A stretch of 64,000 nucleotides of DNA from contig OY740782.1 of the NCBI GenBank assembly GCA_963514005.1, forward strand, positions 103,292,001 through 103,356,000, written 5' to 3'. The first letter of the stretch is position 1, and every line of letters starts with the position of its first letter. Shown piece by piece: positions 11,697 through 53,800 of this stretch. This DNA comes from Raja brachyura. Taxonomy: Eukaryota. A program made the position numbers and the translations under genes. The notes beneath the pieces were generated by a model. That model was not told the DNA's origin. It ran no database searches and saw only the letters and a list, made by a program, of their open reading frames with translations.

Positions 11697-11843
11697 TTAT
11701 TTGAAACAGACTGGGCCAATGTCCAAACCAAATTCTTGTTCTGGGCCACCAATATCCATAGGTGCAATGTCCATAAATGGCAAGCGAGATGTTTTCTGTG
11801 TTCTGTATTCAATGACTGTCTTACTCCATTCACCGGTATGTCT
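11697..11843 (-). CDS. COL1A2: COL1A2 exon 52 coding part (147 bp)
   Basis: [48 protein letters not shown]. Confidence 0.97.
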
Positions 11844-26800: not shown

Positions 26801-29800
26801 TCTGGGCTTCTCTATCCATGCTTTGTGAAATAGCCAAGGTGCCAGACCATCCTCACTCCCTTTATGTGCTCTGCTCTAGCCCCTATGTAACTCTTGCGGG
26901 CCATTTACACAGCAGTTATTTAATTTGCTCCTGCAGGCCCCAAGGGAATCCTACACCACAGCACAAAACAGAGAGGAACACGATATCTCTTCCATTCTTT
27001 ACTTACTTGAGCCCCGCGTGCACCAGCTGCTCCAGGTGGGCCAGAGGCACCAGATTCACCCTGAAGAAGAAAAATGCAAGTTAGTTGATGACAGGAATAA
27101 AAAAGTGATAGCATGAAAACTATCACAATAGGGAGGTCTTGTCCATGATCCAAATGAACGGTAGTGTTTATGTTGGCAGTCACAGAAGAACAATCAGTTC
27201 ATGGAAATTTGAGGCACCGAAAGAGGCCATTCGGCTCACTGTGTTCAGGCTATTCTACATGTTACTCTATTTTCCAACAAGAACACAAGAAATACGGCAC
27301 CGTTCCTGATCATAACTGATCTGACCTCCAAAGTCCATTTCCCGACTGGTTCCACATGATTCTTGATTTAATAAATATGCCTCTTTCAAGTGCGAATGTA
27401 TTTATTGAGCCTAACATTTAGGGTAGCAAATTTCAAAGATTCATAACCCTTGTTACGAGTTTCCATGTTCAGGCAGTAATATCTAGATCCCCAAATATTG
27501 TCTAATTCTTTGACAAAGTGCGCCAAATCTATGTTTTTGACTTTAGTGCTCATAGTGTCAAGGAATGTTACATTGTTCAGCTGCCTAGATATCTCATGAT
27601 TTTAAATATCTCAGTTACATCTCCAGCATAGGTCATTTCTACTCACATCTAACATTCTCTCACCCTGGCCACTTACTTATTATAACACAGAAGGAGGATA
27701 GGAAGCCCACTGAGTCCATGCTGGCTCCCAGCACAATGATACCAGCTGCCCGATTCCCTGACCAATTTTCCCAACAGTTTACTCGCTCTCATATCAACTT
27801 CCCTTTGGTTGTTTTGTCATGATATGGGTTGCATTTATAATAGTTAATTCACCTACCAACTCATCTTTAAGAAGTAAAAGTAAACCATAGTGCTTTGCAG
27901 GAATCCATGCAGTGACAGGGAGATTGCCATTGGAATGTATATGCACCCACCATGCAGGCAGCAACCGAGGTCAGTTTTCAAACCAGGTCTCTGGAGCTGT
28001 GAGCCAATAGCACCACACAGCTCCATGTCACACTAGCTGTACCACCATATCACCCACATCAATATTCTCTGTGCTCTCTCTAATATGTTGTCCAGAATTC
28101 TACTGTGGACAGATCTGTACATAGAAAATAGAAAATAGGTGCAGGAGGAGGCCAATTGACCCTTCGAGCCAACACCGCACAATTGTACAGATTGTGGAAT
28201 AACTAATGCTTTATACATTTGAGCATTATCTCCCTATTTTTATATTGCATGGCTTGATGTATTAAAGCGAGTGTTCTTTCAGCCATCTTAATCACTTTGC
28301 TAAGCTGTCTTGGTACTGTCAGCAGCCCATGGACAAGAACTCCTGGATCTCTCTGCTCTCCATTCCTCTTATGTTAGTCTTCGTCTTGTGCACTGCAAAT
28401 AGTTTCCTAGACATTTAAACTAAATCTCACAGGAATCGAGTGCACTTTCCTCAAATTACATTTAAGTTCGCCGGGCAATGATTGACTGTAACCTGGATAG
28501 CAAAAGTGTACGAGAACTTGAGAAGAGAAATTGTTATGGTAAAGATGACAAGAGCTGATCGATGTAGGTTTTCAGAAACTTACCCTGTCACCAGGTGGGC
28601 CGGCAGGACCAGGAGCACCAGCAGGACCGACAGCACCCTACAGAATAGGAGAGGTACAAAGCCATCAATTTCAGCAGTTTGTACTTTTAGGATAAAGTGG
28701 TATTAAAAACAAAAGAAGGAAAATAATTGTCATCTGAGACATACCCGTGGACCATCCATGCCTGGGTTTCCTTGAGGACCAAATGGACCAATGTCACCCT
28801 ATAAAGACACATATACGATGAGTCAGACGAGGATACTGACAGTAAGAAGCATTATTATTGCACTTTAACATCTCATACATTTTTAAAGAAAATACTTTCA
28901 AGACTGTTCATGGTTTTGTACATTTGTGGAGAATATACAATGACCAAGCAATCAACAGGAAGCCTATAATGCAATAGCAGTAGTTTTCATTCAGATTGGT
29001 GGATACCACACAGTTACTAATCAAGCTTTGCACTTAGCTAGGAAGAAATAAAGCGTAGGAAAATTATACATTTTTAAAGAAAATTAACTTTACCAAAGAT
29101 TGATGAAGATTTACCTTTTCACCCTTCGTGCCAGGGCCTCCAGCACCACCTCTTTCACCCGGCATACCCTGAGAACCTTGAGGTCCTGTATGACCAACGG
29201 GTCCAGTACCACCAGCTTCACCCTAATTGGGGATAACGAACAATGTTGCTGTGTGTTAGTCAATATTTTGTAATCTAATCACTGGAAATCATTTGCTTCT
29301 TGTTACAAAGATATTTTAATGGCAAAGTAGGACCAAGTGCGAAAAATATGCAATATGCAAAAAAGTGTGTGCTCCGGGTAACTGAAAATTAGCTGAGTCT
29401 GTACAAAGGAGTCAGATGAACACCAGTGCAATTTCCAGATGGAAGACTGAAACGCAGGCCAGAATCTTGCTGGCAGCAATACCTGCCTATTCTTGCCTCT
29501 ATCATGGGTCCTGGTTAATTTTAGGCATAGTTTTGGTGTGTGTTTGATGGAAGAAGCTGCTCCAACCTCAGTGCCGAGGTTGTGGAGTCTGTACAGAAAT
29601 CAAATTACTTGGGGTGAAGGCTGAAGACAAACGCCTGTGTAAAATGTTGACAGCCAGCCCTGACCTTAACTGATCATCAAAGCTGTGAATCACTATGAAT
29701 ATTTCTAACATTGAGATGTTCATTATTTTAAAAAAAATCTAACTACTAAACAATTAAAAAAACTCAACTAACATTAAAAGTTGAAACCATTTAAAACACG

Positions 29801-32800
29801 AGGGAAACAATTAAATGATAGGGTGGCATGCTGTGCATCATGCAAACCTGCTGCCTCACAGCTTCAGTGACAAGGCTTCAGTGCCATTTGTGTGGAGTTT
29901 GATGTTCTCTCAGTGAATGTATAGTTTTCCCCAGAGTGCTTTGCTTTCCTCCCAGTCCAAAGACAGCTGGGTTGATAGGTTAATTGAACACTGTAAATTG
30001 CCGCCAGTGTGCAAGCGAGTGATTTTGAGGAGGTTGATGGGGATGAGGGAAGAATGAAAATGGGATTTGTGTAAATAAGTGCTTGATGATTGGCTCACTG
30101 GTGCATGACCCCTGTGATAATATAAATTGAAAAATTATTTAAACATTTAAAAAAGTGATCAAGCTAAAAGTTAAAAAATTAAAAATATTTAACTTCACTG
30201 AAGCAATTAAAAATAACTAAAATTATGAATACTTTGCTCGTTCCTTTGAACACATCCTCCTCCGTTGACTCAATGGAGAGAGCTCCCTACACCAGATTGA
30301 CTTAATGGAGGGAACTTCCTGCACCAGAGGTGATTGCTGCAATTTTGCACTTCAACACTGGACTCAGTTGTAGATGCACAAGTGAAGGACCATGGGAGTT
30401 TGGGACTTCAGTATCTGTACCTGCATATGTAAAAACCTTGAGCCTGCCAGTATTTCTCACAAAAAAAACTGCCTGATGATCAGAACAATTGGACAATTTA
30501 AATATTTTCTCCTTTGCATCCACGACAAGATGTGTGTAAATTATCTTGAATAAATTCAATAAAAACTATGGGAAATGATAATTCCCCAACAAAATAATAT
30601 AACTAACTAGCCAATAGCTTGTTGGAAATAAAGGGTGATGAGTTACTGAAGTAAACAAATATTTAACGTCATACAAATGGAGCAGCTATGTTGGGAATGC
30701 AGTTTAATTCAGTGAAAGGTGGGGGGGAATAACCTCCAATCAAAGGCGAGGGGGTGAATGAGGAGAGCTATCGTAGTCTTCATTTGGCCAGTTTGTTGTT
30801 TTGTGCCGATTTATTGCAACAATTTTTGTTTCCAGCACTTTCCATATATTTTAAGATATGTTTCCTTAATTAAATTAAGCTATATGATATGGTATTATTG
30901 GACCTAACTTCACTCAACTAAATTCACAATTGCCCTAACTACTGAGTCTTTGTAAAATGCAATCATCTCTGAGTGGGAAAAAGATAATTATTTAACAGTG
31001 CATTAAACATGATGATATACAAATATGCTTTTACTCAAATGGTCTGGTTACTTTCCTGCAACCAGGAGTAAACCCTCATTTCAAACATAATTAATATGAT
31101 CTTTAGACTGAAGGAAAATTTACTTCAAATTATTTTTGCCTACTAATGATGCATTTATTTAAACTCAGCACTATATGGAGCAAGTAAAACAAACTGGAGT
31201 AGAACTTACATTCAGAGTACATTGTTTTAAACAAATTATCAGTGAAAGTATTTTGTGAAAGTATTCTGGTATAATGTAACAAATCACATATTAGCTATTC
31301 AGTGAATTTACTTGGATCAAATAAAAAGTTTGTGACATTTGTGCTTAAATTGCACAATGCAAGGCAAGAAACCTTTCATGTTGTCAAAGTACTTTCAGAA
31401 GGTCAGCAACAATAAAATTATTTGCTTTCAACGTACCTTTCCACCATCAGCACCAGGGGAACCTGTGGGACCACGTGCACCAGTAATACCTTGAGGACCA
31501 GTACTGCCTCGTGTACCTGGGAGACCTCGCTCACCCTAAGCAGGGAAATATGAAGAAATTGCTGTAATCATGATGCTATAATACTAAGCTATTTCAGAGG
31601 CCAAAAGCACAAAAGAAACTCGAACTTACTCTGGCTCCAGAAGCACCTTGACTACCAAAGTCACCACGCATACCCTGTGATGAAATAAGAAAGGGATAAG
31701 AAAGATATTTTAACATCACAATGCTAATGAAAATATAATTTTAAATTCCAAAATAAACAAATATGCTACCAACTATATCTGTCAACTAAGATGTGCTTCC
31801 CCTCTGTTTCGTCCTGGTTAAAATCAACCCATTTGGATTCATGAGATATGTTTCAAAAAAGAAACCATACTCCTAAAAATATATAGTGAGCAGTAATAAA
31901 ATAAGATGGCCAGCGTGAATGTTGAGAACATAAATGGCAGCTGGAAGTGCCATCCAGCAGAGTAGACCTGTGGATTAGACAATCCATCTGATTTTCTAGC
32001 TATTGAAATCAAAGCATTGAAAATTGGACAGGCTTGTTTCTTTAAATCATCACACAGATAGTGGTTAAAATCTAAATAAAATGTCTCCAACTGAGTTAAA
32101 TTTGCTCAGTTGAAGACATTTTATTTAGAATTTGCACAAATTTAACTAGTGTTAAATTATTTAGCTGTAATTCACTGATGAAAGACTAGCAGAAAAGATT
32201 GATTCATTACTTGCTGATTTTGATAACTAAATGTAGGGGGATGCATTTTGTTCTCGTCCTATTGCATGTGTACACACTGCTAGTGAGATCAAGATCACAG
32301 ATTTGTGAGCTGTTCTTGTGAACCTTTGGTCATGCTCCCATGGGTATTTCCTATAATGTGATCAGACCTCTTGGTCTTCAAGGCACTGCTTGGAATCTGT
32401 TAAAAAACATTATCTGGCTACATTTATCTAACTATGATTATGAGAGCCAACTGAGCAAACCTGCATGTAGTCTCGTTATGCGTATGAAGCAACTACAGAT
32501 GCTGGTTTAAACCAAAGATAGACACAAAAAACTGGAGCAACTCAGCAGGTCAGGCAGCATCTCTGGGGAAAAGGAACAGGTAAGGTTTAGAGTCTGAAAC
32601 ATCACCTACATTAGTTGCTCCAGCTTTTTGTGTCTATCTGCAGTCCAGTTATGGTGTTTTAAAACAGGCTGCCTATGAACATAGTTCTTCTGAAGGACTG
32701 GGTGTCTGACTCATTACATTTCCAGTACAATCATGTGTGAGGGGTGCAGAAATCACATATGTATTGTACAGTATTTCCCATAGTTCTTTAGCTGGATAAA

Positions 32801-35800
32801 TGTTTACCCTCCCTTTCAAAACATTCAGGTTCAAATAGTTTGATAATATGTTATTTCTTATATGTAAAGTTTTATAGATTAGAGAGTCAATTGTCTCCTT
32901 ACCTTGTCACCTGGTTTACCAGGTTCTCCAACTGCACCAGAAGGACCGGGTAGACCCTAGGGTACCAGTGAGAAAACCCCCCATTAATATTTGGTGAGAG
33001 TACTAACAAATATCAAAGATTTTCATATTGACAAAATCACACGGAGCCGACAAATAATACCCCTTTTTAATGTTTTATATTTATAAAATACTTTAAACTG
33101 ACTTTTCATTTTATGAATTAAAATGGAAAATTCTCGCATGTGAGTGCTTAGTAACTGCACTAAATTTTGAAAGCATTAGGTAGTAGAAAATACTGCTGAA
33201 GATGATAATGCATGAGTTATGTAATTTGATCATTCCCTCTAATAATTTGTCAGTGGAACAAGCATTTAAACAAAGAGGAAATTGAGCATGCAGATGGTAA
33301 TGTGTGTGCATTGATACCATTGAGCATGCAGCTTATGACTAGTGCGAATACACTTAAAAACCTGAATTTTTGTTGCTGATCAGTGATTTACCATTCAGTA
33401 ATATTTAAATATTCCTTTATCATTTTGAGAACAGATTACGTCAATAAAAGAATGGTATTTATCAGGAATATCTGTTTTTTTATGGCATGGTAAACACCAC
33501 TTGCATCTAGGAGGAATTGAAATGTTGCTAATGGACTTTAGATTAGCTCCAGGATGATAGAGGAGTTTACTGTAGGCTAGCTGCAGCCTGCAACCAGTTG
33601 AGGCAATTGACCTCATACTGATTAATTTACTTATTTGGAAATTCCTCTTTCATAACTTACAAAGTGAATCTGTTACATATAATTGACATTATTAACCTAA
33701 AAGTTACTGCAAAGCAAAACAAACATTTGGAAAAATGATTCAATTATTATTGCTCTAATTGCTGCAGCAAAATCAAGCCGAGTTCTATGAGTTAAGGGCC
33801 TGTCCCACTTACGTGTCCTTGGCATGCAAATTACGCGGCCTCGTCGTCGCGTTGAGGTGCACGGGCATCATGTGGCCGCGCGGGGCCAGTCCCACTGAGA
33901 AGCGAGGAGGGGCATGGAGTTGTGCGCGGTATCGCGCGGCACTCCAAAATTTTGTAGCGAACAAAATCTTCGCAGGCCTCCGGCCTGTTACATAACTGAC
34001 AGCCAAAGTGGGACAGGCCCAAGACCCTGGCGCGACACAAAGTCTCACCTCCAACAGCAGAAGTAGGCAAACGATCGCCGAGCTTGGCCTATGGCTCACG
34101 GCCATTGCGGTCCGGATCCGCCCCCATTTCTACTTCAAGAGCGGGGCCAAGAAAATTGAAGATAGACACAAAATGCTGGAGTAACTCAGCGCGACCGGCA
34201 GCATCTCTGGAGAGAAGGAATGGATGACGTTTCGGGTCAAGACCCTTCTTTCAGACTGAAGAATGGTCTCGACCCGAAACATCACCCATTGCTTCTCTCC
34301 AGAGATGCTGCCGGTCCCGCTGAGTTACTCCTGCATTTTGTGCCCATCTTCAAATGAGGTCATGCACTCCAGACGGCTGTGCGAACGCATGAAGCTGCGT
34401 GCGACCTTCACGGAACTGTCATGCCTCAACGCGACCACGAGGTCGCGTATTTAGTGTGCCAAGGACACGGAAATGGGACAGGGGCTTTACACATATGTAT
34501 GAACATCAATTGTCTGCTATGTGTGCAAAAATGTGAATCATTTATTTTAAATTAATTTTCATGCAAACATTTACAACACACATATGTTTTATGACAAAAT
34601 CACTTTACCCATTTTATGAATGTTTTATTGATTACAAAGTTATGTATATTATGTTAGTAAAAAGACATTGAAGTTCAGAATCAAACCTGGAATCCAGAAC
34701 TGCCAGTTGGACCCTGTTCACCCTTTGCTCCAACGGGACCCTTAAGAATAATAACATGGATTTCATCAGTATGACCAAGTTGTTAAGTGTCAACTGTATC
34801 TATGTTGTGAAACGTGTACATATGATTTGGTAATCAATGAAAGTAAATGAACATACTGTAATAATGTTGACATTTTTAAAAAAAACAACGATGTTTATGT
34901 TCACTACATAGTAATGTGCATTAGCTAAAAAATATATTAAATGAACTTAAAATTACCAAGATGTATTTCTTAAGAGTTTAAAACAATATCTTTCATTATA
35001 TATTCCAATCACAATGCATAAATATTAACATTTCACATTAATAAATATACATTGAACTTCTACATACATCATTTACTTCTTGACTTTAAACCAGATTATT
35101 TTAAATGTTTGCAGTTTTTGATTAAGTGGAGGAAACTGAATGTAAATAATGTTTAACATTGGTGATTAACTTTCATGCAACATGTTGTTAAGGCTTATAT
35201 TTGTATCTAAGATCTGCTCTGGAGTTTTCTAGTTTTGTAATGACTTACCACGACACCAATTGCACCTTGAGCTCCACTCTCACCATCTTTGCCAGGTGCA
35301 CCCTGAAATACAAAGTGACCAGAGGAAAATGTTATAATTATATTAATGAACCTTCCTTATTATCACTCCTTAGAGATTGTCAAGTCTGTATTTTTAATAC
35401 TGTAATTTAAACGTCAGAATGAATGGGTAAAATTAATTTAATCACTGTCGTTTTAGGAGATGCTTATGTTTCTATATTCTACAACTAATTTTACTTGAGA
35501 TATAATTGATCAATATCCTTCTCTGAAGGTGGAGATATAGACAACTTTGTAAATGTATTTCTGATCTTCTTCATTCTTTCCTTTTTGTTTAAGAGGTTTA
35601 GCAACATTATTTCATAAGATTACCATATCATATCGATGTAGAAACAAGGAACTGCAGATGCTGGTTTACAAAAAAGACACAAAGTGCTCAGCAGGTCAGG
35701 TCGCATCATTGGAGAACATGGATAGATAACGTTTTGGAATGGGATTGTTCTTCAGACACATATCATGTCTACGATTGCCCATTCTCCTATTGTTGAGGTA

Positions 35801-38800
35801 ATTTTCACCCATTGACTATTGCTTCACCTATAAACCAGGGAGCCTTGAAGGATTGTCTGAAATTGCATTGAATAGCAATTGACTTTTGAGTAATTCTATG
35901 CCAGAGATTTAAGGACCTAATCTATCTGCACTAAGAGACCATGATAAATACTCTTTTAGTTCTGAACTGTTTATGAGGTTAGGAGTGGGTGAGGGAGGTC
36001 TGATCCCTCTTGCTGGTCACTGTGTAATGCAAACAAACTATTTACTACAATCTGAAAATGCCATCCTGTGACCATTTTACGTGTGTAGCTTTCAGCAAGG
36101 GTGTGAACCTGAAAGTAATGGGGCCTTAGTGACTGTGATGTAAGCAGGTACTGCAACCTAACCACCAACCTCAACGTCTGCAACTGAAAATCTACCCCAT
36201 TACTTCAAGGCATTCTTCACTCCTTTGGGAAAATCAACGATGTTTATGTTCACTACATACCAATGTCTATTAGCTAAAAAATATATTAAATGAACTTAAA
36301 ATTACCAAGAAGCATTTCTTATTGGTTAAAACAATATCCTTCATTATATATTCTAATCACAATGCATAAATATTAACATTATTTCACATTAATAAATATA
36401 CGTTGAACTTATACATACTTCATTTACGTCTTGACTTTTGCTATGCAATAACTGTTTATAAATCCTGTTTCCATTGACTGAAATTTCTTGCTTTGCAACA
36501 TTGATCATTCAATTTTATTTCCGTTGAAGTCAAAATGATTTCCGCAATTTCTAAACAACATTATTAATCTTGGAGGAATTTTTGAAATTACACAAGATTG
36601 GACTTTAAAGGCTGGAAGGCATGAGCATTGTCCTTAGTTAACGTTCGTGCAATAAGCCCATTACCCGTGCTATTTTAAATGTGTTAATCTTCTGCTTTGG
36701 AGAAATATTGGAAAAAAGAGTTATAGTTCATCTGTTGATATCAAAATATTAGCTTTTATTCCTACATGCGTCTTAAAAAGTATAAACTTTAACACAAGTG
36801 CACAAAGATAGTGATGTTTGAGTGTATCATGTGTTGGCTTAACACAGTGCATGAAGTAAACCATATCACTGAAACCCTGTGAAACGTAGTGATGACATTA
36901 AACCTACCCTTAGGCCAGCAGGACCAACAGCTCCTCTATCACCAGGTTTACCACCTGCGCCCTGGGAAAGAAGACAAATAGTATTTTATTTTTGGAAAGC
37001 AAACGTTTAGCCATTAATTTGACAAACTAATTGTTTCACATGACTTACAAGATTTGGTTCCGAATTAACATTTGCAGCGTAACTCCTAGACTACCGAGGG
37101 TCGCAGACAGGTGAAGAACATCCAAAAAATGCTTTGATGTACAACACTTCTGCAATCTAGTTGAAGTAAGTGGGATCGGAACTACAATGCCAGAGTGGGC
37201 CCCATAAACCACACCAGATGATGGTCAGCATGAAGTTGACCACCAAGCCCAAACCACCACTTATTTTTGATTATATCTAAATAAAGCCGCCAAAGTTACA
37301 ACCAAAGCACACATACTTATCGTCAGTAAGGAAAGTATTACAATGAACTGAATAAAAATTGTTAGAATTTTAATTTGGAAAGGCTTTAACAGTAGATCAA
37401 TAGTAAAGACCACTCAGAAACCCTTGCAATAATACATTTGACATTCGGTATATATTTGCTGATTATTATATAATAATGTTACTTACAGCAGCGCCTTTGG
37501 GACCAGGGAAGCCCATCATTCCGGCCTGACCTCTTGGACCAGCAGGACCAGGGGGTCCAGCACGACCTTCCTCACCACTTGGACCCTAAAATATATGATC
37601 TTAGACAATGAAACAATGCTCTTCACAAGTTACTGAGGATTATTTTTACAAATGCATGTTTGTTTTACTTCCATGCATGTTATTGATCAATGCAGATATA
37701 TAGATAAAAACTCAATGCTTGTTATTCATCTTTTATTACATAGTAGTTGGTATTATAGCATAAGGTAAATTGCATAACCCTAAAACATTAGTAGGCTTTA
37801 GTTTTTTTTCAAAGTGAAATTATATATTATAGTAAAACATGATTCAGACACCAAAATATGAAAATCAATTGAGGAAGCTATCCACACTAAGTATTCAATG
37901 GGTATTGTGTCCACTGATATATACATTTCAACAAGATTTGTATTTTAAGATACGTGTCTATATATTGGACTGTCAGGAAACTGTGACAGTAAAAGCAATC
38001 AAATTATGACTAGGTTGAAATTCTTTGCAAATGAATCAAAATGAGCAGCTACGGATGAAATGAGGTGGTCAATAACGAGTGCTATTTTGACTCAGACATC
38101 CTCGTGTTGGATTGATTTATTTATTAATTGATTGATTGATTGAAATATACAGATTGGAAACAGGCCCTTTGGCCCACTGAGCCCACACCGACCATCAATC
38201 ACCTGTTCCCCTAGCTCAATGTTACCCCACTTCTGTATGCACGGCCTGTATGTTCAGGGCAATTTGCAAAAGGCTAAGTAACCTCCAAACCAGCATATCT
38301 TTGGGAGGTTGGAGGAAACCTGCTGGAAACTGGGGCGAACGTGCACATCCACACAGACAGCACCCAAAGTCAGAATCAAAACCAGTTCTTTGGTGCTGTG
38401 AGGCAGCAGCTCCACCAGCCGTGCCACCCCACATATGCATCTTAGATTTCAAACAACATTCAAAATGTTGCCCACATGATGCTTCAAATATAAAAATGGC
38501 AATACATTCTCAACAAAGTTATTGTTAAGTGTTGCCTTTTATTCACCAAAAGTTGTTCCTGAAATTGTTGTTGTGTTTTGACAGTCTTAGATACTTTTTG
38601 GCTGTGTTGTAAAATTTTTTCTAAGTGATCACCAACAATTTGTCAAATTAGTTTGTCAAATATACATGATTTGCATGTGGATTCTTAAATCTTTAGGTAA
38701 TTACTAAGACAAAACAGTTAACGCTTTGATTTATTGTTAATTATGAATTGCAATTTTTGTGCTGAACACATAATTAATAGATAAATAGTTAAGTTAAATG

Positions 38801-41800
38801 GGCTTTTCTGTTAAGTAATATGTATGCAATGTTATTGCATCATAAATGAGTAATTGTTAGTAGAACTAAATGGCACAGAGTTTTGCAGTTACTGCACCAA
38901 GACTAAATCGCTACGTTATTCAATTAGCATTTTAATAAAATAATGTTACTTTAAAAGTTAGTTAAACCTAATAATTAATGCCTGATCATTATTTAAACGC
39001 CTGGGAATAATTCTAATGTAATATTCCCATGTAATTTGCCATGCTTTATTCAAACCTATTAGATTGAATAAGCTGTCAATAAGGGGAGCATACAACCTAA
39101 AACCAACTTACAGCAGGACCTGATTTGCCAGGAGCACCTATAATGCCGGTACTACCTACGATACCCTGAAAAATAACACATTAATGTAAGGTGAGAAAAC
39201 TTACTGGAAGACCTTGATTTCCCACAATACCACTTCTACCAGGTTGTCCCATGAGACCCTATAAATAGTGAGGAAAGCATAAATGTTTTACATCTCATTC
39301 TATAGTGTATACAATTAAGCTATATTACATTAGATTGTCAACAAATTGATCTATTCATTCTCTAACTGTAAAGGCTATAAAAATCCCTCAAGGGCGAATT
39401 CCAAATGACAACTCGTCAGCATATGCAGAAATGAATTGCTCCTGAGGCTTTATGAAACAAGTAACACATAATTGAATAAGTGTTCCAAGATATGAAATAA
39501 AAGCAAAACTGGTGGCTATTCACTTTTAAAAACATAATTGTGCAAAAATAACATAATATGTCTAAATTAGATAATATATTTACCACCAGGGGGCGCCGCA
39601 CGATGGCTGCCACGCCAACGGTCTGTCTCCGCCTTTATCCTTCTTTGTGTTTTAAGTTTGTTGTAAAATGTAATTTTGGTTTATCTTTAGTTTTGTATTA
39701 TGTGGGGGTGGTGGGTGGAAACTTTTCTTATCTCTTTCCACACCGGAGATGCAACTTTTTCCTGTGTCGTATCTCCGTCCGCACTGCGCTCTAACATTGT
39801 GGAGTTGGCGGCCTCTTGCTGGGACTTCTAGAGCTCCAAAACCGCGGAGCCTGTGGACTTTAACATCTCAGTGTGGGAGACCCCTTTACCAGGGTTCGGC
39901 CTTTGGTGCTCCAAACTGTGGGAGCTGCGGACTTTAACATTACGGAGCTCACAGTCCCTGGTTAGTGGCCGGCTTCGGGAACTCCAAGTCACAGGAGTTC
40001 AACCGCCCCAATGCGGGAGCTTAGACCGCCCCGATGTGGGAGCTCGGTCGCCGGTTGCGGACGGTTCGACTTCCCCAACCGCAGGAGGAAAGGAGGAAAG
40101 AAGCTAAGACTTTATTGCCTTCCATCACAGTGGGGCACGTGGAGGAGCCGATGCGGTGGAAGTTTATGTCAATTTTTAATGTAGTTATGTGTCTTGTTGC
40201 TTTTTTGCTATCACTGTATGACAAACCAAATTCCTTGTGTGTTGCAAAACATACTTGGCTAATAAAGTATGATTATGATTACATAGTGGATTTAAAGAGA
40301 AATATATATATATTTTTTTATTATAGCATAATGTTGGAAGCTTATTTTAAAATGTTATGAACAGTTTATTAACATAAACTACAATACCATATCAGATTTT
40401 TAAAAATTGTGAAAATTAGAAGTATGTAAATGAAATAAATACTAGAACGCAAACTTTTAGTTGCATTCCTTTCAGCTGGGCTTATTATTGCAGTTGTTGC
40501 TTTAGTATTGCTCACCCGTAGACCAGGCATACCACTTTCACCAGGACGTCCCATGTCACCACCAGGCCCTGCGGCACCAGCAGTACCCGTTTCACCACGT
40601 CTGCCTTGAGCACCCTAGAGGTGATATAGAAAAGAAAGTAGAGTTATTCTGAATATCTCTTGTAAATCAACCAACATAATCATTCAATACAAAGCAAGGA
40701 AAAAAATCACAGTTTGTAGAAAATAGTCACATGCTGTTCATTTTATTTGATTTTTTAATATTAAAAGAGTAAAGTTTACCATGCCACCAGCTCTTCCAGA
40801 ACTTCCGGGCATACCACGGTTACCAGGGGAACCCTACAAATAAAATTCAATAAAAAATTGAATGTGTACTCAACAATAAATCTCATTGCATTTTGTAAGT
40901 GTTAACGTATTGGGAAGTTGCCAAAAAAAAAACCTCAGAAATATTATGGTCTAATTTATTACAATGTTATAGTTTTTTGTACATAATTATTAAAATTAAA
41001 TTGACTGGTCTTGTGTAGACAAAGGGATTGCAGCCCAGTCTGTGTGTATATGTCTGCCACAAGCAAACCATTCATAAAGATTCACCAGAATAGTTAAAAA
41101 TTAAAATGAACAAAATTATTCAAATGCAGTTACATTGGTGAGAATTCTGAAACTATTAAACAATGCCCACATTCAATGCCCATATTTTGTTGAGTGCTCA
41201 AAATTGCAAATAAAAGATACAAGTTCACATATCACCAAATAGCTGTAAACATTATTATTAGGTAATGTTGATTTAATTTGTAAAATTGAAGGTCTGAATG
41301 CTTTGCAGTTTAGTTTACAAAATGTAATGTTAACTTTACCCTTTCGCCTGGAATTCCCTGAAGTCCTTGAAGACCAACTTCACCACGAGCACCTTGCTTG
41401 CCTGATTCACCAGATTGGCCAGGGGAACCTGCAGGTCCAGCATCACCCTGATTTTAGCAACAGGAATGTGTAGACATGAGTGACAGTTGACAGAGAATCT
41501 CAAGACAATCAAACTTGCAGAGAAAAGGTCCAACTAACAAAAACATCAAAGAATAAACACTCACAGGCTCGCCTTTGGAACCGGTCTCTCCCTTGATACC
41601 TTGAACGCCAGGGTCACCCTGATAAGGATAAAAGGAATGGGTTATCAAAAATAGTTATTTCCTCCCATCAGATGGAATAGTTATGGCAATTGCTTGACAG
41701 CTAGATTGCATGCTTTACTTACAGAGAGTCCACGAAGACCTGCAGGTCCTACTGCACCTGAGGCGCCGGCTATACCACGGGCTCCTTGGAAGCCAGGAGC

Positions 41801-44800
41801 ACCTGCGATACCTGGGGCACCCTGTGTAAGAAACACACCCAAGTCAAGTATTTGATGGCTAAGAAATTAAATGAAGAGGCACCATAGATGCATGCTGAAT
41901 GTACCAACCATTGCACCCTTTGATCCAGTAAGACCATTGGAACCTGCATTTCCCTAGGATAAAAAAAAAACAAATGAATATAGAAATGAATATTTTCATT
42001 TGAATTAGATCCTTTCTTAAAATGCTTGAAAGGTATTGCTGTCATAAGTACTTACAGTAAGACCCATGGGGCCAACGGCACCAACAGCACCAGGCACACC
42101 TCTGGTTCCTTGAGCTCCAGTTGGACCACGAGCGCCCACTGGTCCAACCTCACCCTTTGTAAAGTGGAAATAAAAGAAAGGCAGGTTGTGAGTTCAGCCT
42201 GGGTTGTTATCACAGGTATATCGAACTTCTTAACTTGCTCCTAGCTAAGTGATACAGCATCTGTCATGTCTGCCATCAACTATTATAATCCTCTCCATCT
42301 AAGATGATTTCTGAATATTACCTATTTACCTTGCTTTCCAATGGACATTGTTATTTCATGCTGTATTTAATTATATTGTTTTTTTTATTAGAATTCCAAA
42401 ACAACTGGTAAGTTAACCAGCGGGAATCTCATCTAATAAAAATATGAATTGGTGTGCAAGATTATTTCAGTTAGTGTTGAGAAAATGATATATCATACAA
42501 AAGGTTTTGGTGCATAAGGACCAATGTAACTTACAACTCAGCGAATCTAAGGATGTAATGATTAATTTACCTACCTTTGCCTCAATGTATACATTTTGGA
42601 ATAAGTATATTGTTCATATTTGTATCTGTATGGTTTGAAGTCATTTTTAGACCTTTTAACCATTAAACCACCAAATAGGAACAACGTTTAATCCTATCTC
42701 TTACAACTCATTTAGAACCTATTGATCAAGTAATGGAATACCATTATAAATTATGTCCGTCAAGTACAATTATTTAGTTTATTAAATCAAAAATAATATT
42801 TTATTTTGTTTGGACAATTCTTTCAAATTATATATCAGTCTATCAATTAATGCACTTCTTTGACTAATGTTGAGTCTCAGTGAGGAAAAATCAAACCTGC
42901 AGTAGTTTAAAACATATTTTTCCTAATAACATAATTTTCCTAATAACAAATCCGAGAAACACATCATTTGTTATGGAGAGCTTACCCAATCTAAGCACAT
43001 TGATCATTTATGTTCTGAAATAAGCTATGATTGGAATAATCCCTTAATAATATCAATATAACCATGAATGCAATTTTAGATAATCTCATATTTCAAGTAA
43101 TAACCACATTGCGACTCCTTGTTTTTGCATATTTTCTTAGAAGAGTTGTAAAACTGGGAGATTGGCATGGCAGATATCTAGTTCCTGCCATGTTATATCA
43201 TAGACCATTTAGAGGGTGACCATGAATAATAATTTCATGAGGTTATCTTACACATAAATGAATGTATTTTTTTCATTATTAACATGGCGTGGCTGAGTAA
43301 CTGTAAAACACATATGTACGCAGTGATGCTCTGATGACACCAAAGCAGTCATGTGATCTCACAACTAGCTATAAAAGAAGCACAGAAATCTACACTGAAT
43401 GCTGCCGAGAAATCCAGTTGATAAATAGAGGCCACGTTCGAGCTATCCTTATTTGTGCTATTACATCCTTAGATTTGTTTAATTCTATGTCACATTGGTT
43501 CCTACGTGACAATCATAAAATTAAACAAGGATTGTTCTTGCTTGCACTGGCTTATCTGGAAGGTGACCTTTAGATAAAAGGATAGGAATTAATTTGCTTA
43601 ATTAATTTGCAACTTAATATTGTACAATATTTACATTTGTACAATATTGAATGCAACAACCAATTGAATATCTGGTCCGTATAAAATCACATTCAAAGAA
43701 TAAAAGCAATGATTGCAATTTGTTGAGAATCATCTGCCCTGCAGCAATGTTCACTCAATCCAAATCAATGCTTGGCTTTAAGAATTTTCTAAATGCATGA
43801 TAATTTATGATGGGAATCAATGGATTGATATACGTCATTTAAAGCATAATTTTGATTTTTAATGTTTATTTATCAGTTTAAAACATCCCTCATCAATTAA
43901 AGTTATGTGGTGTTATATTCCATTCCCAAATAATTCACTATTTCTGACAATATAAAATGCTGACTTACCTTGAGACCAGGACTGCCTGGAAAGCCTGGAG
44001 GACCAGTTGCACCAGCGAGTCCCTGTAAAGTAACAAAATAACAATATTTACCTTGTGAACATTTTAGAAATACAATTTGCCATAATATTTCTTATGTCTC
44101 AAATATCTGCCTGGGCGACATTTACAATCAATGCTGCAAAAGACCATTGCCATTAGGGAAATATATACATTCGATCAATATCAGTTATTCAGATCAGGAA
44201 TACGGTATAGTATTTCAGAATCAGTTTCACTGCACTCTCACATTATTTATTATCATCAATAATTTCAAGGATTACCATGATTACTAATTTCACTGGAAGT
44301 CATTTATAAGATATCATCATTTTACATCATAATTTCACGTAAATGATGTGGAGGAAAACATAAAGAGCTGGAGCAACTCAGCTGGTCATGCATGATTTGT
44401 GGAGAACATGGATAGGTGATCTTTCGGGTCAGGTCCTTCTTTAAATTGAGTGTAGTGACGTGGTGGGGGGGGGGGGGGGAGAAAGCTGGAAAAGAGGTGA
44501 GGGTGGGACAAAACATGGCAATAAGGGATGGTACGATTGGCAGATGAGTGGACAAAGGCAAGAGGTGAAAGGAAGAGAAGAGAATGCAGAAAAGAGGAGT
44601 GAAATGTAGAGCCAGGGGATGAACATATGAGGAAGGGGACAGTACTGGAAAAGGGGAGGGGGGGGGGGGGGGAGATAGGATGGTGGGGGAAATGTGTGCA
44701 GCTAGTAGAGCTGTTGCCTCACAAAGCCAGAGACCCAGTATAAATTCAGATCCTGGGGTTATCTCTATGGAATTTGTACATTCTCCCTGTGTCTGCATAA

Positions 44801-47800
44801 GGTTCTTCTGGGTCCTCTTGTTTTCTCCGCAATGCCAAAGACATGAACATTGGTAAGTTACTTAGCCAGAGTAAATAATAGTTGTATCTATGGGGGAATT
44901 GAGGGGAATGAGGAGATAATGAAAACAGGGATTTATGCAGGCTTAGTGTAAATGGTTTGTCGATGGTTGGTGTGGACTTAGTGAATTGAAAGGCTTGTTT
45001 CCATGCTATATCTCTCAATAACTATATGCAAGTGGTATACTTACAGGATGGCCAGAAGGTCCTGCCATTCCATCACTGCCTCGGGCACCCTTCAATGAAT
45101 CAGGAAACCATTTTTAATAAATATACTTATAATCAGAAGATGCACAAAACTACAAGACAGATTATCAGTCTTGAAATTGATGATAAAGAAAGACACATAT
45201 ATGTTCTTCCATAGAAATGACAAAATATAATATTTTAACACACCATCAAGATGCAAATCATTACTTTACATTACTGATGCTGTTAAAATCAAATTTAATT
45301 TTAATTAAAAAAATTACAATTACAAATATTACAATATGTTGGCACGGGTCTCATTTAATGGAAAGGTAAATGTACAATCAATAATTGGAAAAATCAGTTA
45401 GATAGGTAGATTGCCCACCAAACAAAATGTCTGATCAGCCATGAGGTGAATAAGGCTTTCCACCAAGAGCACAAATAAACTAAATAGAGAGAGAGTCAGA
45501 AACAGGACACTCACAACTGCACCAGGAGATCCCATGCGGCCTCTCTCACCCGAAGAACCACGGACACCCTGTTTGCAAAAGAAGAAACATTCACTTATTT
45601 TCACATAGATTGTTAAGTGAAATTATGACTTTGTCCCCTGTATCATCAGCCAGCAATTCCACAGAAAAACTCTGGTAACATCTAGGTCACTGAACAGCTT
45701 GCCTCTGTTTTCCATGCCTGCATATTGAAACGTTGAAGATAGGAAGCAGGGGAAAAATCTCGTGCCAGCACATCTCACCATCGTTTAGCTGCTGGACCCA
45801 GCACTGGATGCACTTCACATCCAGCCCCTCAGCTTTACGCTAGCCATGTTTGGCTTATGAAATGCAAGCTCATTTGAGCCATGATTAGAAAGGCAAGCAC
45901 ATGCAGATAAGAGGCTTGTTTATTCTTTTTTAGTTGACATTATTTTAAAATTAATTTCTTCATGCTATCCAGGATGGAGCCACAGCCTGACATCAGGTCG
46001 CTACCTATGGACCACTCAACCTCACGGCTCAACCACAACATCGAGGTGCCAGGACATTAGATCCTGCTAAACAACAGAAAATATGGCTGAAACTTGACTG
46101 CGAATAGCACGGATTGGAGACGACAGGAAGTGACCAAATCAAGCAATGATTTGCAAAAATTTACATTATTTACTATTATTGACAAAGCTGTCATAATGGG
46201 TTACCCAGGGCATTAATAAAACCATTCCTCCATTTTGAACATGCAACACATACCACCATTCCAGGGCTACCATTTGATCCAGTGTTTCCATTTTCACCCT
46301 GGAATTTAAAAAATAGCAGTATGAAGTTTTAGATTGGCTTATCACAGTATTTATTACAATAAATGTTCTGCAATAAGTATTAGCTAAATCAATGTTTGTC
46401 AAACAGTTCTGTGTGAGAAACACCTGCAAATAATAACACACATCAAAGGATCACTTGCAAATATTGTCATACTCCTGGATGCTTATTGATGTTTTGCTGA
46501 AAGGAATGTGATGCATTTGTTGTAGAAAATATAGTTTATTTGATATATGTATTACAAATAAACCGTTTTTTTATATTACTGATGAACCAAAAATAACCAA
46601 GATCCTTGAGGAATCAACAATTCAAGGGCAATATAAATGTTGGATGAAATCATTAATTTTGGTGTTTGATTGCATGACTGTGGCCTGACATAATACAGTC
46701 TTGCAGAAATATATTATAGACTGCTTAGGTTCAGGGAACTACTGATGCTTTCATTAAAAAATAATATTTCAAAATATCATTAAGACTTTTATTTTTCTAT
46801 TCATTCTTCCTTAATAGTCTTTAGAGGAGAGGTCTGAAAGCATGACAGAAGGTCAAAATGATCCATCCTTCGGAGTGATAATTTAGTAGAGAGTGGCATA
46901 AAAGATGGGAAAAGGAAAGAAGTTTGCCTTACCAAACAAAAGTAAAGATACATTTATAGAGTTTTTTTGGGAGGTTCTTTTAATAAATAATTCACTCTTT
47001 AAAAACTCTCAGAACAATAGAAAGTGCAAGGATAATGCTAGATCCTTATTAACAGCCAAGACCATTAATGAGAAGTGTTGTGAGGACTGTGAATTTGTCA
47101 ATAGAACTGTGATAGCTTGTCAAAGATATGCTTACAATAGTAAACATGAATTTTTGGTTCTTGTGAGATACACCTGTGTCTATAAAATGGGGATTGTTTA
47201 GAAATAATCAAATAATAATATGTGAAACATCACATCAATGGCCAGAAGCAACTTCTGGCATAGGAGAGTCATGTCTGCGAGAGGCTTTTATCGTGGTTTT
47301 AAGATTAACTTGGTATCTACCCATGATATGTCCAGTTAGATTTTAAGAAGGTTCTTGCATTGGACTCTTCAGCACAGTTTCAAAATCGCAAGGCAGTTTT
47401 CCTTTCTTTAAGTATATGTTAAAGCAGCCAACAGATGATTTGTGTAAGTTAGGTTGCATTCTGTCATGGAAACAATTATTGGGCCTAAAATTATAAAGCT
47501 GCTTCTAATTTCAGTACTGGGTTGTGCATGACTACAAAGCTAATTGTGTTTCTCGACAGAGTGGGTCATGACTCTTCTAAGGAGGTAATGTTTCACAGAT
47601 GGTTTAAACATACATTGTTTGGCAAATCACTTATGACTATGGTAGTAAGCAAGGGGCAGGAGTTTCTTTCTGTGGGTGCTATATTTTGATTTTTGCTTGC
47701 GTTATTCTGTTTAATTGTTCTCTCTGTACACCCATTGAGGGTAAAATGTCCAACCAGTTTCCAATTCTTGAGCAATACAAATGTTACCCAAAATTCATAA

Positions 47801-50800
47801 TTAGTTTTCATTATTTGATGTAAAGGCTGACACTAACTCGTCTTATTGAGAAATCTCGGTCAGATTGGATTTGAGGATCAACCATTTATTTATTCCAGTA
47901 TTGATTTGGAAAGCAGAAAACTGAAATAAGTGTTTTTTTATTGTGAATTTTTAGAATAGTTTGCTACAACACATGTTTAATAAGATATTGTTCCTTAATA
48001 AGATGCTCTTGATAGAGAAGTTTGTCATTGCATTGTCGACTTACAAACAAACTGGACCAAAAAGATGAATCTCAGAAATGTAATGCACGTACAAAAAAGA
48101 CATGAGATAAAAACAAGGATTTCCATGGAAAAGATATACAATAGCAGAGATTAATGTACTCGGATTGCAACATGCAAATATCTGCTCTGAAACAAATCAT
48201 TATAGTAAAAACAAAAAGTGGCAGAACTACCTATTTATAACATTAGTAGTAAAAGGGTGAGGCTAGGTAGATTTCTATTTGTTTTTTACTGGGGAGGCCA
48301 CAATTGAATCCTGGATTGCCTCCCCCACCCCCATCCTCCCCCTAAATGGACGGCAATTATATTTTCTGATCCAAATTAATTATATATTTCAATTAAATTC
48401 TAAGTAGCAATTAGGATTTTGATTTGCTCAGTTTTCTAAGACTAGAATCTTTAATTGCAGAAAACTCACAAAACTCACAAAAAGTTAACATAATTAATCC
48501 AGGAGGCTTCTCTTTGATTTTCTGATGTAAAATCTGGTTATATTGCGAGCAGAATTTAATAAAACAGCAGCTGATTAATGAATTTCCATTTTATATCATA
48601 TCACTAAATGTTTCCTCAACTAATGTTTCGACCTAATTCACTATAATGCTATTGTGGCTACAGCCTTACCGTCATTCCAGCAGAGCCTGGTTCTCCCTTA
48701 GTTCCATCCAGGCCAGTGTAACCCTGTAAAGAAATGGAAAAAGTTATAAAATGAAGGCCAATTACACATCGTGGCACAAATCAAGTAGCAAAGATATAAT
48801 ATTCAACTCACACGGTGTCCTTTCCTGCCAGAAAGACCAGGAGTACCTGGGAAACCACGAGCACCCTAATAAGATGAAAGGAGAAATATAATCAATGAAT
48901 CATCAAAACGAAAAGACATTGTCAAGCCGTTGTTAGTACAGGAAGATTAATGCCTTCAAGTTCAATGGTGATAAACCTCATGCAACAACTTCACTTGCCT
49001 GGGGTCCAACAATACCACGTTCGCCAGATTTGCCAGATTTGCCATTTGAACCCTGTATAAAACAAAGATGGAATCTTACTTTTCACACAATGTCAATGAC
49101 CGAAGCACTTTACATATACTTACTGTACTAGGTGGATTAATTCATCATTTTAGTATTTAGGTGAATGAATCGTGTATGATTTTTATATAATTGCTATCAA
49201 ATAATAATTACCAATTAAGTGCTAGGCATTTCCAACTTGCCTAATATATCAGGTGAATGAATCTTCAGTCCGCCTGAATTTAGCAAAATCTGGTAGATTT
49301 AACCTAAATGCTGTCTTCCGGATCAGTGACTGCTGTATTAGGAATAAGACATTCCTTGGACAGATCAAGTTCAGATTAGCTTCATTTTTAGCTTCAGATC
49401 ACCCATTTCCATTTGCTGAACATAGAGAAAAACTAACGTTATTTCCCCCTCAATCAGAAAGTTGACGAGTTAATTGGACCTAAACTATTGAGATCCTCGG
49501 ATGGTTTGACTGCAAACTACTGATATTCCTTTGGCATTGCTGACTTCCTTGCCTGAATTTTGAAGAATGGGTTAGGCAGATACTGAAGATCAGGTGTCAG
49601 TGCATATATACTCAATAATGAATCTAGGGGTGGACTCAGTCATGTCTGGCTGAGGCGTTGGTTACATTCTTTAGCTTCAGCCAGGGCTAGAATATTCAGT
49701 TTAATCCCATCTATTTAACTGGGCTCATTGACCTAGATATCAAGTGCAAGTGGTTTAATTATTTTGAAAAAATAATATTTATTGTTTTAATGATTTTAGA
49801 TCAGATAAGTGGAGTTAAAAATAAATGTATTATTTTAGTTTATATAATTCCTAATTTTAACAAAATGGTTTAAATGTTTTTGAATAGCCAACATTTAGAA
49901 GCAGTGGAATGGATGTTCAGGGTGTCCAGGACCTCAGGTCTATCACCTGAGGAATAGTCATTGCTTATGGGTAGGAAGGAACTGTGGATGGTGGTTTAAA
50001 CTGACCCAAAACATCACCCATTCCCTCTATCCAGAGATGCTGCCTGGCCCGCTGAGTTACACCAGCATTTTGTGTCTATCTTCAGTCAATGTTTATGGAC
50101 TGCTTCACTTCCAGATATCGCTCCAGCACCAAGGCCTGGATCGTGATTTGATCCTCAGGACTACAAAGGCTAGTACTGCAATGGGAATCATACAGTCAGG
50201 GAGTAGCAAGGAACAGCTGCATACGTATGACACCTACTGTGTCCTCATGAACATTATATTTGTTACATAAGGTATTGAAGGGACAGTGAGGAAATGACTC
50301 GCTGTCCACATTGTAAATGTAATAGGAACAAATCTGGCAAAAACATGTTCATTCTATGTATTTATTCCTTTTAAAATATTTTAGATGAAGAATCACTGGA
50401 ACATTTGACTGACTTTTTCAAAGTAGTTAAATATTTAACGATCTACTAATGCAAGTTCTGTAATAGGAATCCTAGGATAGGAAATTACAATAAATGAAAG
50501 ATATTCTAATTCTTAAGGGTTTACATTTTATTCCAGTTATGTTATGTCATATTGTTCTTTATTGCACAGTTGCATATCTCTGTTATTATTTCTTTAATTG
50601 CATAGGAATCAAATGAAGGTTAAAATTTAGGCAGTTTGGTGGAGTTTTTGCAATGGCAATATCAGTGAGACGTTGGATTATTGTGGATATCTTTAAAAAA
50701 AAGCAAATATGCAACCCATTATGAATTTTAATTTAATTGAATGTGACTTTGATGCACCGGAACTTTAAAGGTATAGCAGAAAATTGATTCACTAAGGATG

Positions 50801-53800
50801 GGATTACATGGCACTGAAATGAAAGATCAGATATGACTTGGTTGAATGGCAGAGCAGGGAAGAGGAGATGAATTATCTACATTTGCTTCTGTTCTTTATA
50901 TTCATATTTTGGTGCTTGAAAATGTGTAGTGCACACTAATAAATCAGATGCTTGCTACAAGGGACGTCAATCATACATGTGGAATATTATCTTTGTGTTG
51001 ATAATATTGATACTCCATTTCCATCAATGATCCCAAAGGATCACCAAAATTGTCGCTATTTAGGTGAATACATAAGAACCCAAATCTTTACGGCAACAAT
51101 AGTCATGTAATTCTTTGAAATAGCAAATTTATTATCACAAAATATAATTGTGATAATGCCAATATGATATTGAGAAATATTTCTGCATTGTAGCCACCTC
51201 AGTTCTGTACAGATTCTGATAAATCTAATCAAGGAAGGCTGCAGGATGCTTTGACTTTGAAGTTAAAAATAAAAATGAAAAGGACATCTTACGACAAAAG
51301 GTTAAGAAGGTTGAGCATAGAGATTATGGAGGGCGAGTTCCTGACTATATTCAAGGCTGGGTGACAAACTGTTGGTTTACAGGGAAATCAATGCTCATGC
51401 AAAACAAGGAAAAGTGGGATCAACGTCATGATTATTAAAGATTTTAGCAGAATCCCTAGTCCAAAACGGAAATGGCTTTCCATGAAGAGCTAACTATCCT
51501 GCTTTCTTTTCCTTAATTCTTCGGTTTAGATTTTTTATGATGTCATGCGAACCGTTGCAGTTAAGAAGCGATCACGTTAAAAATGCTGTTATGATTCATA
51601 TTGTATACCTACATCTTCACCAGGCTTTCCAGGTACACCTTGAGGACCACGAGCGCCAGCTGGACCCTGAAGAATAAAAGGAAAGAAGGAAAGTAAAAAT
51701 TAACTAAAAGTTCCCAGAATTTAGGAAATATTGAGTGAAATAAATATTGGCTTTGGTGTATACTTACAGTTGAACCAGATTCACCAGAAATGCCTGGCAG
51801 TCCTGGAGGTCCAGGAGAACCCTGAAAGAGAGCACATGCATCTGATTACAATTCATCATAAGTGAAATCTTCGAAAATAACTTTAATGCGAATATTTAAA
51901 ATGGAGGTAGTACAATGTGTTGCATAGTTTCAATTATAACTAGGTAAGGATTTTAAGACAAGAGATCATAATACTTACAGGGACACCAGAGGATCCTTGT
52001 GGGCCTCTCACTCCCATTGGTCCCTGAAAAAATATATATTATGTTTAAATTAGTATACAAAATCATAGTCATTACTAAAACACAAACATATCTATATTCA
52101 GTGAACTAAACACAACTGAGAAGGAAACAAGATTGATTAGGCCAAGAGTGATTGATGAACTAATGGACTTATAATAAGTCTTATCTTTTTAGCTGTATTT
52201 AGGGCAAGCCTTTGAAAATGGTTGGGCACAGCTTAAAACAACAACCCTTGAAAACTAAATCACAAATTAAATTAGGTTTAAGAGAAACCAAATTGAGAGC
52301 TTAACTTGTAATGTTACATTCATTGGAATCATGTATTAGTTTCTACCAATTAAAGGTAAATGCAAAATGTGATTTAATCCAGGAACTTACAACATAGAAC
52401 AGTAACAGGCCCTTCAGCCCACAATGTTTGTGCCAAACATGATATCAAGTTAAACTAATCTCCGCTATCTGCATGTGATCCTTATCCCTCCATTTCCTAC
52501 ATCCATGTGTAACTACTTCACTGTGCATTGTTGATCATGTTTCAGATGGTAGAGCCTCACCATATATTACTTTTATGTTCAGTATGCTTTAGAATGATAA
52601 ACATTGAAACCAATTATCCCCCAAAGAAAGCAGAGGATTAAATAACTAGTTAATCTGTTATAACAAAGTGCTGGAAATTCTCAGTCGTCTATACAGCTTC
52701 TGCAGAGAGAGATACATAATTTGAGAAGTTCTGGGTTCTCATTGGAGATCATTGACCTAAAACAATTAACTGTTTTTCTCTTGAGTGCTGCTGCCTGACC
52801 TGATGGTATTTCTAGTTATTATTTTTTAATGCTTTCCAGCCTGATCAGTGTTTGCTTATGACAGCTTTGTGTGTTTATGATGGCGTGGTTGGTGGGGGGG
52901 ATGATTCAGGTTGTAGAGCTCTCTGTTCTCCATTAACTAAAACCTAACATTTTAACCAAGTTTGCTCTGAAGCAAGGAAACTAAAAGCTAGTTCCTAACA
53001 GATGAGAAACACACCCAACAATTTAACATTCCAGCAATAATGCATTTATTTTTAGGTTAGATGCCTTGTTGAATTACTGGAATGAAGATCAAGTCTTCTG
53101 AAGAGTGAGCAACCAGACAAACCAAGCTTTCCACAGAACATAGAAAAGTACAGCACAGGAACAGGCCCCAGCCCACAATGTCCATTCCTGAAACCAAGAT
53201 AAACTCATCCCACCTGCCTGCACATGATACATATCCCTCTATTCCTTGCATTTGTGCGTGCCTATCTAAAGGCCTTTCATGACAATGTGTATTGGGACAT
53301 GCTTATAAACGAACCTAACAAACTAAAACACTGATTTTTGTTGTATCTGTTGTAAAGTTATAGTGACCTAAATTTCCTTCATTGTTCCAATGAGATTTGT
53401 CAATTAAAACCAAATCTTCTGATTAGAATTGGAGGATAGGTTACACGAGGGAATTTCATTATTACTCACTTTTTTGAGTTGTGCTTGCTTAATTGTGGGC
53501 AGGTTTTAATTTAAACACAAAACTAACCTTACTGACTAAAACCAAAGTACTCCACATATCTTCTATTGGACACTGTCTCCAGCCTTTTGTTTGGAAAGGG
53601 GATGATGTGATATGGTATAGTGCAGTAAGATGGGTTAATAACAGAGAGTCAACAAGAGGATGCCATTTGGATTTTACTTGTACTTTAGGCCAAAAGAATA
53701 CAACATTTCACTTGCTTACCACATAATTAGCATCCTGTCTAGTTTCCATTTCAAAATTCTAGTTTTCACAGTGGTATTAATCTTGACTGTAATCTATTTC

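Follow-up and report, generated by a model that had tools for sequence, protein, structure and literature searches.

The question raised by this locus is whether the main helix of a vertebrate type I collagen can be built from alternative exons. That helix is regarded as invariant within a species, its chains having to match in length and register. The window analysed here, a stretch of 64,000 nucleotides of Raja brachyura DNA from a 2.70 Gb assembly, contains a fibrillar collagen gene, and a sequence-only reading had proposed that two neighbouring exons in the triple helix of COL1A2 are used there in a mutually exclusive manner. The features on which the argument depends are as follows.

11600..62698, minus strand: host gene, COL1A2-type pro-alpha2(I), with its ATG at 62698 and running on into the final exon; the lower coordinate marks the limit of the translated stretch, not a mapped transcript end.
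40516..40614, minus strand: exon 23, a constitutive exon of 99 nt whose donor is joined to 24a or 24b (joints 39257/40515 and 39164/40515).
39205..39258, minus strand: exon 24a, 54 nt, helix residues 361-378, the major form in all four runs aligned.
39166..39204, minus strand: spacer, 39 nt, with the 24a donor, three branch-point-like yTnAy motifs, an in-frame TAA and the 24b acceptor.
39112..39165, minus strand: exon 24b, 54 nt, helix residues 361-378, the minor form.
38856..38962, minus strand: two ACTAAC motifs, a candidate 24b enhancer, 150 and 251 nt downstream of 24b.
37487..37585, minus strand: exon 25, 99 nt, constitutive, carrying GMMGFP.

The exons of the host gene were found by a scan for AG-flanked Gly-X-Y exons, the end exons being read by eye. 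A translation test with one exon 24 gave an intact gene of 52 exons with an ORF of 1366 aa; the ORF is 1384 aa with both exons 24 and 1348 aa with neither. The main helix comes to 1014 residues (3+996+15) with one exon 24 and to 1032 with both, in agreement with the earlier count, while the mechanical Gly-X-Y run is 1017 or 1035 because the first C-telopeptide triplet also begins with Gly. Together with this helix length the gene shows the fibrillar clade A exon pattern, with the same exon sizes as the COL1A1-like gene of the genome, and it matches the canonical list of COL1A2 helix exon sizes. The C-propeptide has seven Cys after the helix, with Ser in place of the alpha1(I) Cys2, and the C-telopeptide has no Lys at the position of the alpha1 cross-link; we take the seven Cys without Cys2 and the missing cross-linking Lys to be marks of COL1A2. 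The N-propeptide is short and without a VWC domain, presumably an alpha2(I)-diagnostic mark, and the main helix begins at residue 94. These chain-specific marks and the exon pattern bear out the earlier assignment and identify the host gene, by its sequence, as COL1A2. Canonical vertebrate COL1A2 has the same 52 exons, seven C-propeptide Cys, lack of VWC and 1366 aa, whereas a second exon 24 is present only in the gene described here. Three further features of the gene were recorded. Exon 10 (48999-49052) is followed by a GC-AG intron; every other donor from exon 2 to exon 51 is GT. At 14 nt and 21 nt, exons 2 and 3 (58732-58745 and 58620-58640) count as micro-exons; the human COL1A2 exons 2 and 3 are of 11 and 15 nt. 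Proline makes up 13.2% of the main helix (exons 6-49) and Gly, Ser and Ala are frequent at X/Y positions, a low imino content that would fit a cold-water collagen.

Both 54-nt exons were confirmed on the minus strand, each with six perfect Gly-X-Y triplets, an AG acceptor and a GTAAGT donor. They are neighbours of equal length and phase (0) and encode the same region of the protein. Their splice sites are ordinary in strength when ranked against 113 collagen sites of the genome, the acceptor and donor falling at the 57th and 69th percentiles for 24a and at the 38th and 80th for 24b. The spacer is exceptional: it measures 39 nt, a length taken from the assembly alone, and the second shortest of the 42 gaps that separate helix exons is 87 nt. 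The in-frame TAA claimed for it is also present, and a transcript keeping the spacer would have an ORF ending at 478 aa. An element of the form AG-(Gly-X-Y)x6-GT has a chance expectation of 2.3e-7 in 32,006 intronic nt, and the stretch 39060-39320 is single-copy, its one match in the assembly being itself. A search for degenerate extra exons in the introns around exon 24, both here and in three paralogues, gave just repeat-like matches without exon features. The long introns flanking the pair (38105-38500 and 39590-40400) contain interspersed repeats that attract many unrelated RNA reads.

Evidence from RNA came from a search with the last exon, which gave 24 runs, four of which (X4, X17, X23 and X24) were aligned to exons 22-26. 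None of the runs listed carries an RNA label, and X4 is tagged as probable DNA; the alignments themselves reveal X4 and X17 as spliced RNA. The most informative was X24, raw oligo-dT reads from organism D, a close relative, of which ~5% of the run was used. Here exon 24a was joined to exon 23 by 207 reads (100 starts) and to exon 25 by 226 (95 starts), and exon 24b by 36 reads (25 starts) and 35 (26 starts) respectively, against 223 and 216 reads for the control junctions 22-23 and 25-26. The share of 24b in this run is thus 0.14 (about 0.10-0.19 with the counts halved). Another sample from the same organism and study, X23, gave 13, 12, 9 and 2 reads for 23-24a, 24a-25, 23-24b and 24b-25, a 24b share of ~0.31 behind which stand just 2-3 read starts. 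In X4, contigs of spliced RNA from a relative, organism B, with exon depth ~100-fold over intron, the depths were 7558 for 23-24a, 10672 for 24a-25 and 132 for 23-24b (~2% 24b). The 23-24b contig of X4 continues into the unspliced intron below 24b, and the 24b-25 joint is absent among the 15 of 39 joints listed. All four alternative junction types have GT-AG ends. Junction reads bridging over the other exon were found for all four joints in X23 and X24 and for 23-24b in X4. Altogether 24a is backed by three studies with three organism labels and 24b by two studies with two labels. Exon 24a is the major or default form, and 24b a minor in-frame form amounting to about 2-30% by run.

Four of the five joints that the sequence-only reading had proposed to count were found in organism D, and its central claim, mutual exclusion, is borne out there by the joining of both exons to exons 23 and 25 and by balanced counts. 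Since each exon is entered about as often as it is left (207/226 and 36/35), there is little room for co-inclusion. Neither a 24a-24b nor a 23-25 joint occurs among the 15 of 39 joints listed, the weakest of which have a depth of 21-22, so that co-inclusion would amount to at most a few percent; roughly fewer than 20 such reads could be present in X24. Decay cannot explain the missing form because co-inclusion is in frame. The RNA of relatives thus supports 24a and 24b as mutually exclusive. The strongly unequal use of the two exons had not been foreseen. The X4 intermediate, in which 23-24b is spliced and the next intron is not, places the choice at the upstream intron. Over that next intron (38160-39164) the X4 contig has a depth of 132, against ~68 for other pieces of the flanking introns, and removal of the 24b-25 intron may be slow. 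In the same run 4 nt are missing at 39261-39264, just upstream of the 24a acceptor; 24a is still the major form.

A need for exactly one exon 24 is apparent from the partner chains. A single exon 24 is found in each of three clade A genes of this genome, one COL1A1-like, one COL2A1-like and one further gene, the names being inferred from sequence. The possibility that col1a1 has a matching extra exon had been raised; none was found, the COL1A1-like gene having canonical sizes and no extra helix exon over exons 7-48. Among chains of solved structure, alpha2(I), II and V alpha2 have exactly 18 residues between their matches to exon 23 and exon 25. With a single exon 24 in alpha1 and this 18-residue spacing, an alpha2 chain can match its alpha1 partners only if it has exactly one exon 24. 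Loci L012/L013 (G000:C7:77387500-77441900) were recognised as a clade A fibrillar gene that resembles COL5A2 or COL3A1 and has one exon 24.

The two exons have diverged to a great extent. They have none of 12 X/Y residues in common, 13 of 36 X/Y nucleotides (background about 10 +/- 2.5) and 28 of 54 nucleotides overall. When exons of the same number in this gene and the COL1A1-like gene were paired, X/Y nucleotide identity averaged 0.57 over 22 pairs, with a minimum of 0.40; that between 24a and 24b is lower still, at 0.36. The exon 24 of the COL1A1-like gene matches 24a at 17 and 24b at 19 of 36 X/Y nucleotides; the best of 122 in-register windows of the gene itself reach 15 and 18, and this better match to the paralogue's exon 24, by a margin of one base for 24b, favours a tandem duplication of exon 24. 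Gly-Lys at triplet 5 is found in all three paralogues, in the type II chain of 9wxp and in 24b, which places a Lys at helix 374. The major exon 24a departs from this pattern, having Asn at triplet 5 and Arg at triplet 3 and no Lys at helix 374. From these residues the minor exon 24b appears to be ancestral-like and the dominant 24a more derived, a polarity that the sequence-only reading had not anticipated. We also considered whether 24a arose from the 3' part of exon 23, which it matches at 81% over 32 nt, and rejected this because the 14 of 24 X/Y nucleotides in common lie at the bottom of the range; the best matches for all 24 exons of 54 nt range over 13-18 X/Y nucleotides.

Searches further afield gave little. 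A homologue search yielded three hits among 116 candidates, none of them a full-length alpha2(I), and a search of representative proteins returned 86 sequences of up to 689 aa, mostly short pieces of the C-propeptide, with no full-length cartilaginous-fish chain. In the metagenome scan 594 stretches matched and none was confirmed, a structure search with both exons gave no hits and no look-alike stretches were seen in the other genomes scanned. These blank homologue, metagenome, structure and genome searches are not evidence of absence. The entry P0002, recorded as belonging to a bacterial genome, is a C-terminal piece of a fish alpha2(I) and an evident contamination of the public record.

The polarity of the two exons bears on what the minor one is for. 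Exon 24b could be the old exon 24 in the process of fading, its inclusion an unregulated and tolerated leak, with the Gly-X-Y repeat preserved, on this proposal, for no other reason than the dominant-negative effect that a broken helix would have. Such a proposal disputes separate functions for the two exons and leaves mutual exclusion untouched. It would fit the ancestral-like character of 24b, an acceptor scoring below that of 24a, and a form that is minor wherever it was seen (14%, ~31% on few reads and ~2%) and unseen in X17. However, the sharing of no X/Y residue and an X/Y nucleotide identity of only 0.36 imply either long coexistence or fast divergence, and a useless exon could simply lose its splice sites, while the 24b donor stands at the 80th percentile and is used in two organisms. 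We regard a fading exon, the main rival reading, as unlikely, albeit with points in its favour.

A narrower doubt concerns the skate species itself, in which 24b might be silent with both exons active in relatives. X17, contigs of spliced RNA from organism F, is the sole aligned run fully matching the window (share 1.00); its contigs differ from the flanking introns of the window at three positions in 732 nt, and at two positions plus 25 gap letters in 637 nt. It shows the 24a form only, with depths of 6643 for 23-24a and 7027 for 24a-25 and no piece over 39121-39184. X17 is, however, one set of contigs, and contigs lose rare forms. The triplets and splice sites of 24b are also intact in the window, and among the differences listed just two separate this exon from that of organism D. 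Within the two exons together, three differences between organism D and the window occur among the 40 of 391 listed; all are at Y positions and none at Gly, one being silent and two conservative. Silence of 24b in this species is accordingly improbable.

The spacer suggests how exclusion could be enforced. Its yTnAy motifs would place a branch-point A at +13, +18 and +24 from the 24a donor and at -27, -22 and -16 from the 24b acceptor, positions that come from motif prediction only. A donor-to-branch distance of <50 nt defines the steric class of mutually exclusive exons, to which 57 of 629 clusters were assigned in a human catalogue (PMC5740500), and short spacers block double inclusion, the 30-nt spacer of let-2 in Caenorhabditis elegans being never excised (PMC4165533). 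Here the whole spacer, at 39 nt in the assembly, falls below that distance, and steric exclusion at 24a/24b is likely on this geometry. A true ultra-short intron would allow some transcripts to carry both exons and a helix of 1032 residues. Human introns of 37-65 nt are reported in PMC4463651, and many short human introns in PMC5435141; the spacer has a good donor, branch-like motifs and an acceptor, the product would be in frame (1384 aa), and the joints beyond the 15 of 39 listed could include a few 24a-24b reads. The validated human introns of this size are, however, mostly G-rich (PMC4463651), and the spacer is unlike them. No 24a-24b joint is among those listed, the 23-24b count of 36 equals the 35 for 24b-25 and the 226 reads for 24a-25 are not under the 207 for 23-24a, and a lengthened alpha2 would lose its register with an alpha1 chain that has only one exon 24; we therefore consider such an intron highly improbable. 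An assembly artefact or chance pseudo-exon is hardly credible, given that, although the spacer is spanned by no listed read or contig, both exons occur in the spliced RNA of other organisms and have themselves already been cleared, just 28 of 54 nucleotides in common do not indicate a duplicated contig, the chance expectation is minute (2.3e-7) and the X17 contigs are near-identical to both flanking introns.

The explanation that best accommodates these observations as a whole, and which we hold to be quite probable, is a tandem-duplicated exon 24 whose two copies are now mutually exclusive by steric block, with 24a as the default. Exon 24 of COL1A2 would have been duplicated in tandem in this lineage. 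With the 24a donor and the predicted 24b branch point just 13-24 nt apart U1 and U2 could not both bind, so that U1 on the former and U2 on the latter would exclude each other and the spacer could not be excised. The donor of exon 23 would be joined either to 24a and then to 25 or, skipping 24a, to 24b and then to 25. This geometry would keep the two exons from entering one transcript and would leave 24a as the default, in line with the counts; retention of the spacer would lead to a premature stop and probably to decay. Both routes would keep the alpha2 helix at 1014 residues and in register with alpha1.

Any control over the choice may lie below 24b. Of eight splicing-factor motifs searched in two windows, ACTAAY stood out with a nominal P of 0.011 (one of 16 tests, not after correction), and the intron below 24b is the sole one of 23 long introns with two ACTAAC in its first 300 nt. 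We take ACTAAC to be a STAR/QKI-type motif, and the two copies offer a weak lead as a candidate enhancer of 24b. ASD-2 is a STAR/QKI protein with an ACTAAC-type motif. In let-2 it binds below the downstream exon and promotes its use (PMC4165533).

The closest known system is indeed let-2, the C. elegans alpha2(IV) collagen gene, with its mutually exclusive exons 9 and 10 (PMC2119826; PMC4165533). According to these accounts and the present data, both systems have two adjacent exons, in frame and within a collagenous domain, of which a transcript uses one, and between them a spacer too short for excision (30 nt in let-2, 39 nt here). They differ in that let-2 encodes a nematode basement-membrane type IV collagen and the gene described here a vertebrate fibril-forming type I collagen. 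The let-2 exons are described as 57% identical in protein and as differing mainly in an interruption of Gly-X-Y, whereas 24a and 24b encode an uninterrupted helix of equal length with no common X/Y residue. Use of the let-2 exons is a proven embryo-to-adult switch; for 24a/24b the junction reads give a 24b share that varies from run to run. The pair works like let-2 9/10 but is not its homologue.

The human catalogue of mutually exclusive exons (PMC5740500) likewise includes a steric class and collagen genes. COL1A1, COL1A2, COL2A1 and COL3A1 do not occur in ten of its supplementary files. In the rows of these files the COL5A1 pair encodes non-helical sequence, the COL24A1 helix exon is paired with one that lacks Gly-X-Y, and the Gly-X-Y entries belong to non-fibrillar collagens (COL6A2 and COL13A1), with no fibrillar helix-for-helix swap. 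Collagen terms had no match in the main text of PMC8373072 or in one supplement of PMC9741552, and the 24a and 24b peptides had none in the literature searched. No report of alternative helix exons in vertebrate type I collagen was found in the open-access literature, although automatic annotation may already contain isoforms. What is new is that a vertebrate type I collagen has a pair of RNA-backed, swappable helix exons; the class of mechanism is already known.

The effect of the swap can be considered from its place in the fibril. The position claimed for it, helix residues 361-378 near the DDR/VWF/SPARC site, was confirmed and corresponds to 0.54-0.62 of the second D period, which by the usual fibril model is in the gap zone. 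From residue 378 it is 18 residues to Arg 396 and 22 to GMMGFP at 400; GMMGFP at helix 400-405 is the equivalent of the DDR/VWF/SPARC site. Chains containing 24a and 24b differ at all 12 X/Y positions of the segment. A basic residue moves by six positions, from 374 in 24b to 368 in 24a, and the prolines and the beta-branched pattern differ, with length and net charge kept. The most likely effect, as predicted from these residues, is an altered fibril surface and local stability in the gap zone ~20 residues before the DDR/VWF/SPARC site, and the swap may tune partner binding or packing at constant length. The site itself was also examined. Mammalian alpha2(I) differs at it; the GMMGFP of alpha2(I) here is close to the alpha1/type II/III form, and exon 25 has 12 of 22 X/Y residues identical to those of the COL1A1-like exon 25. 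It may be, then, that every chain of the collagen I trimer in this fish has a near-complete site.

Beyond the quite probable steric arrangement lies a more tentative proposal, possible though short of probable, which draws on the analogy with let-2. The pair could be an old regulated switch of cartilaginous fishes, in which a STAR/QKI-type factor bound below 24b would activate the ancestral exon by cell or stage, as ASD-2 does for let-2, giving two heterotrimers with different gap-zone surfaces beside the DDR/VWF/SPARC site.

The locus represents a way round helix invariance, in which an equal-length block of 18 residues is swapped and geometry bars double inclusion. It also appears to record how a derived exon took over the leading place from an ancestral one. 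Since the two natural alpha2(I) chains are alike outside residues 361-378, the role of this gap-zone segment in stability, packing and ligand binding becomes directly testable, and collagen peptide fingerprints and gene models of these fishes would need both forms. Bony fishes gained an alpha3(I) chain through gene duplication. If the switch is real, the dermis, fin rays, tendon-like and mineralised tissues of these fishes would lay down two type I heterotrimers, a splice-encoded substitute for the extra type I chain of bony fishes.
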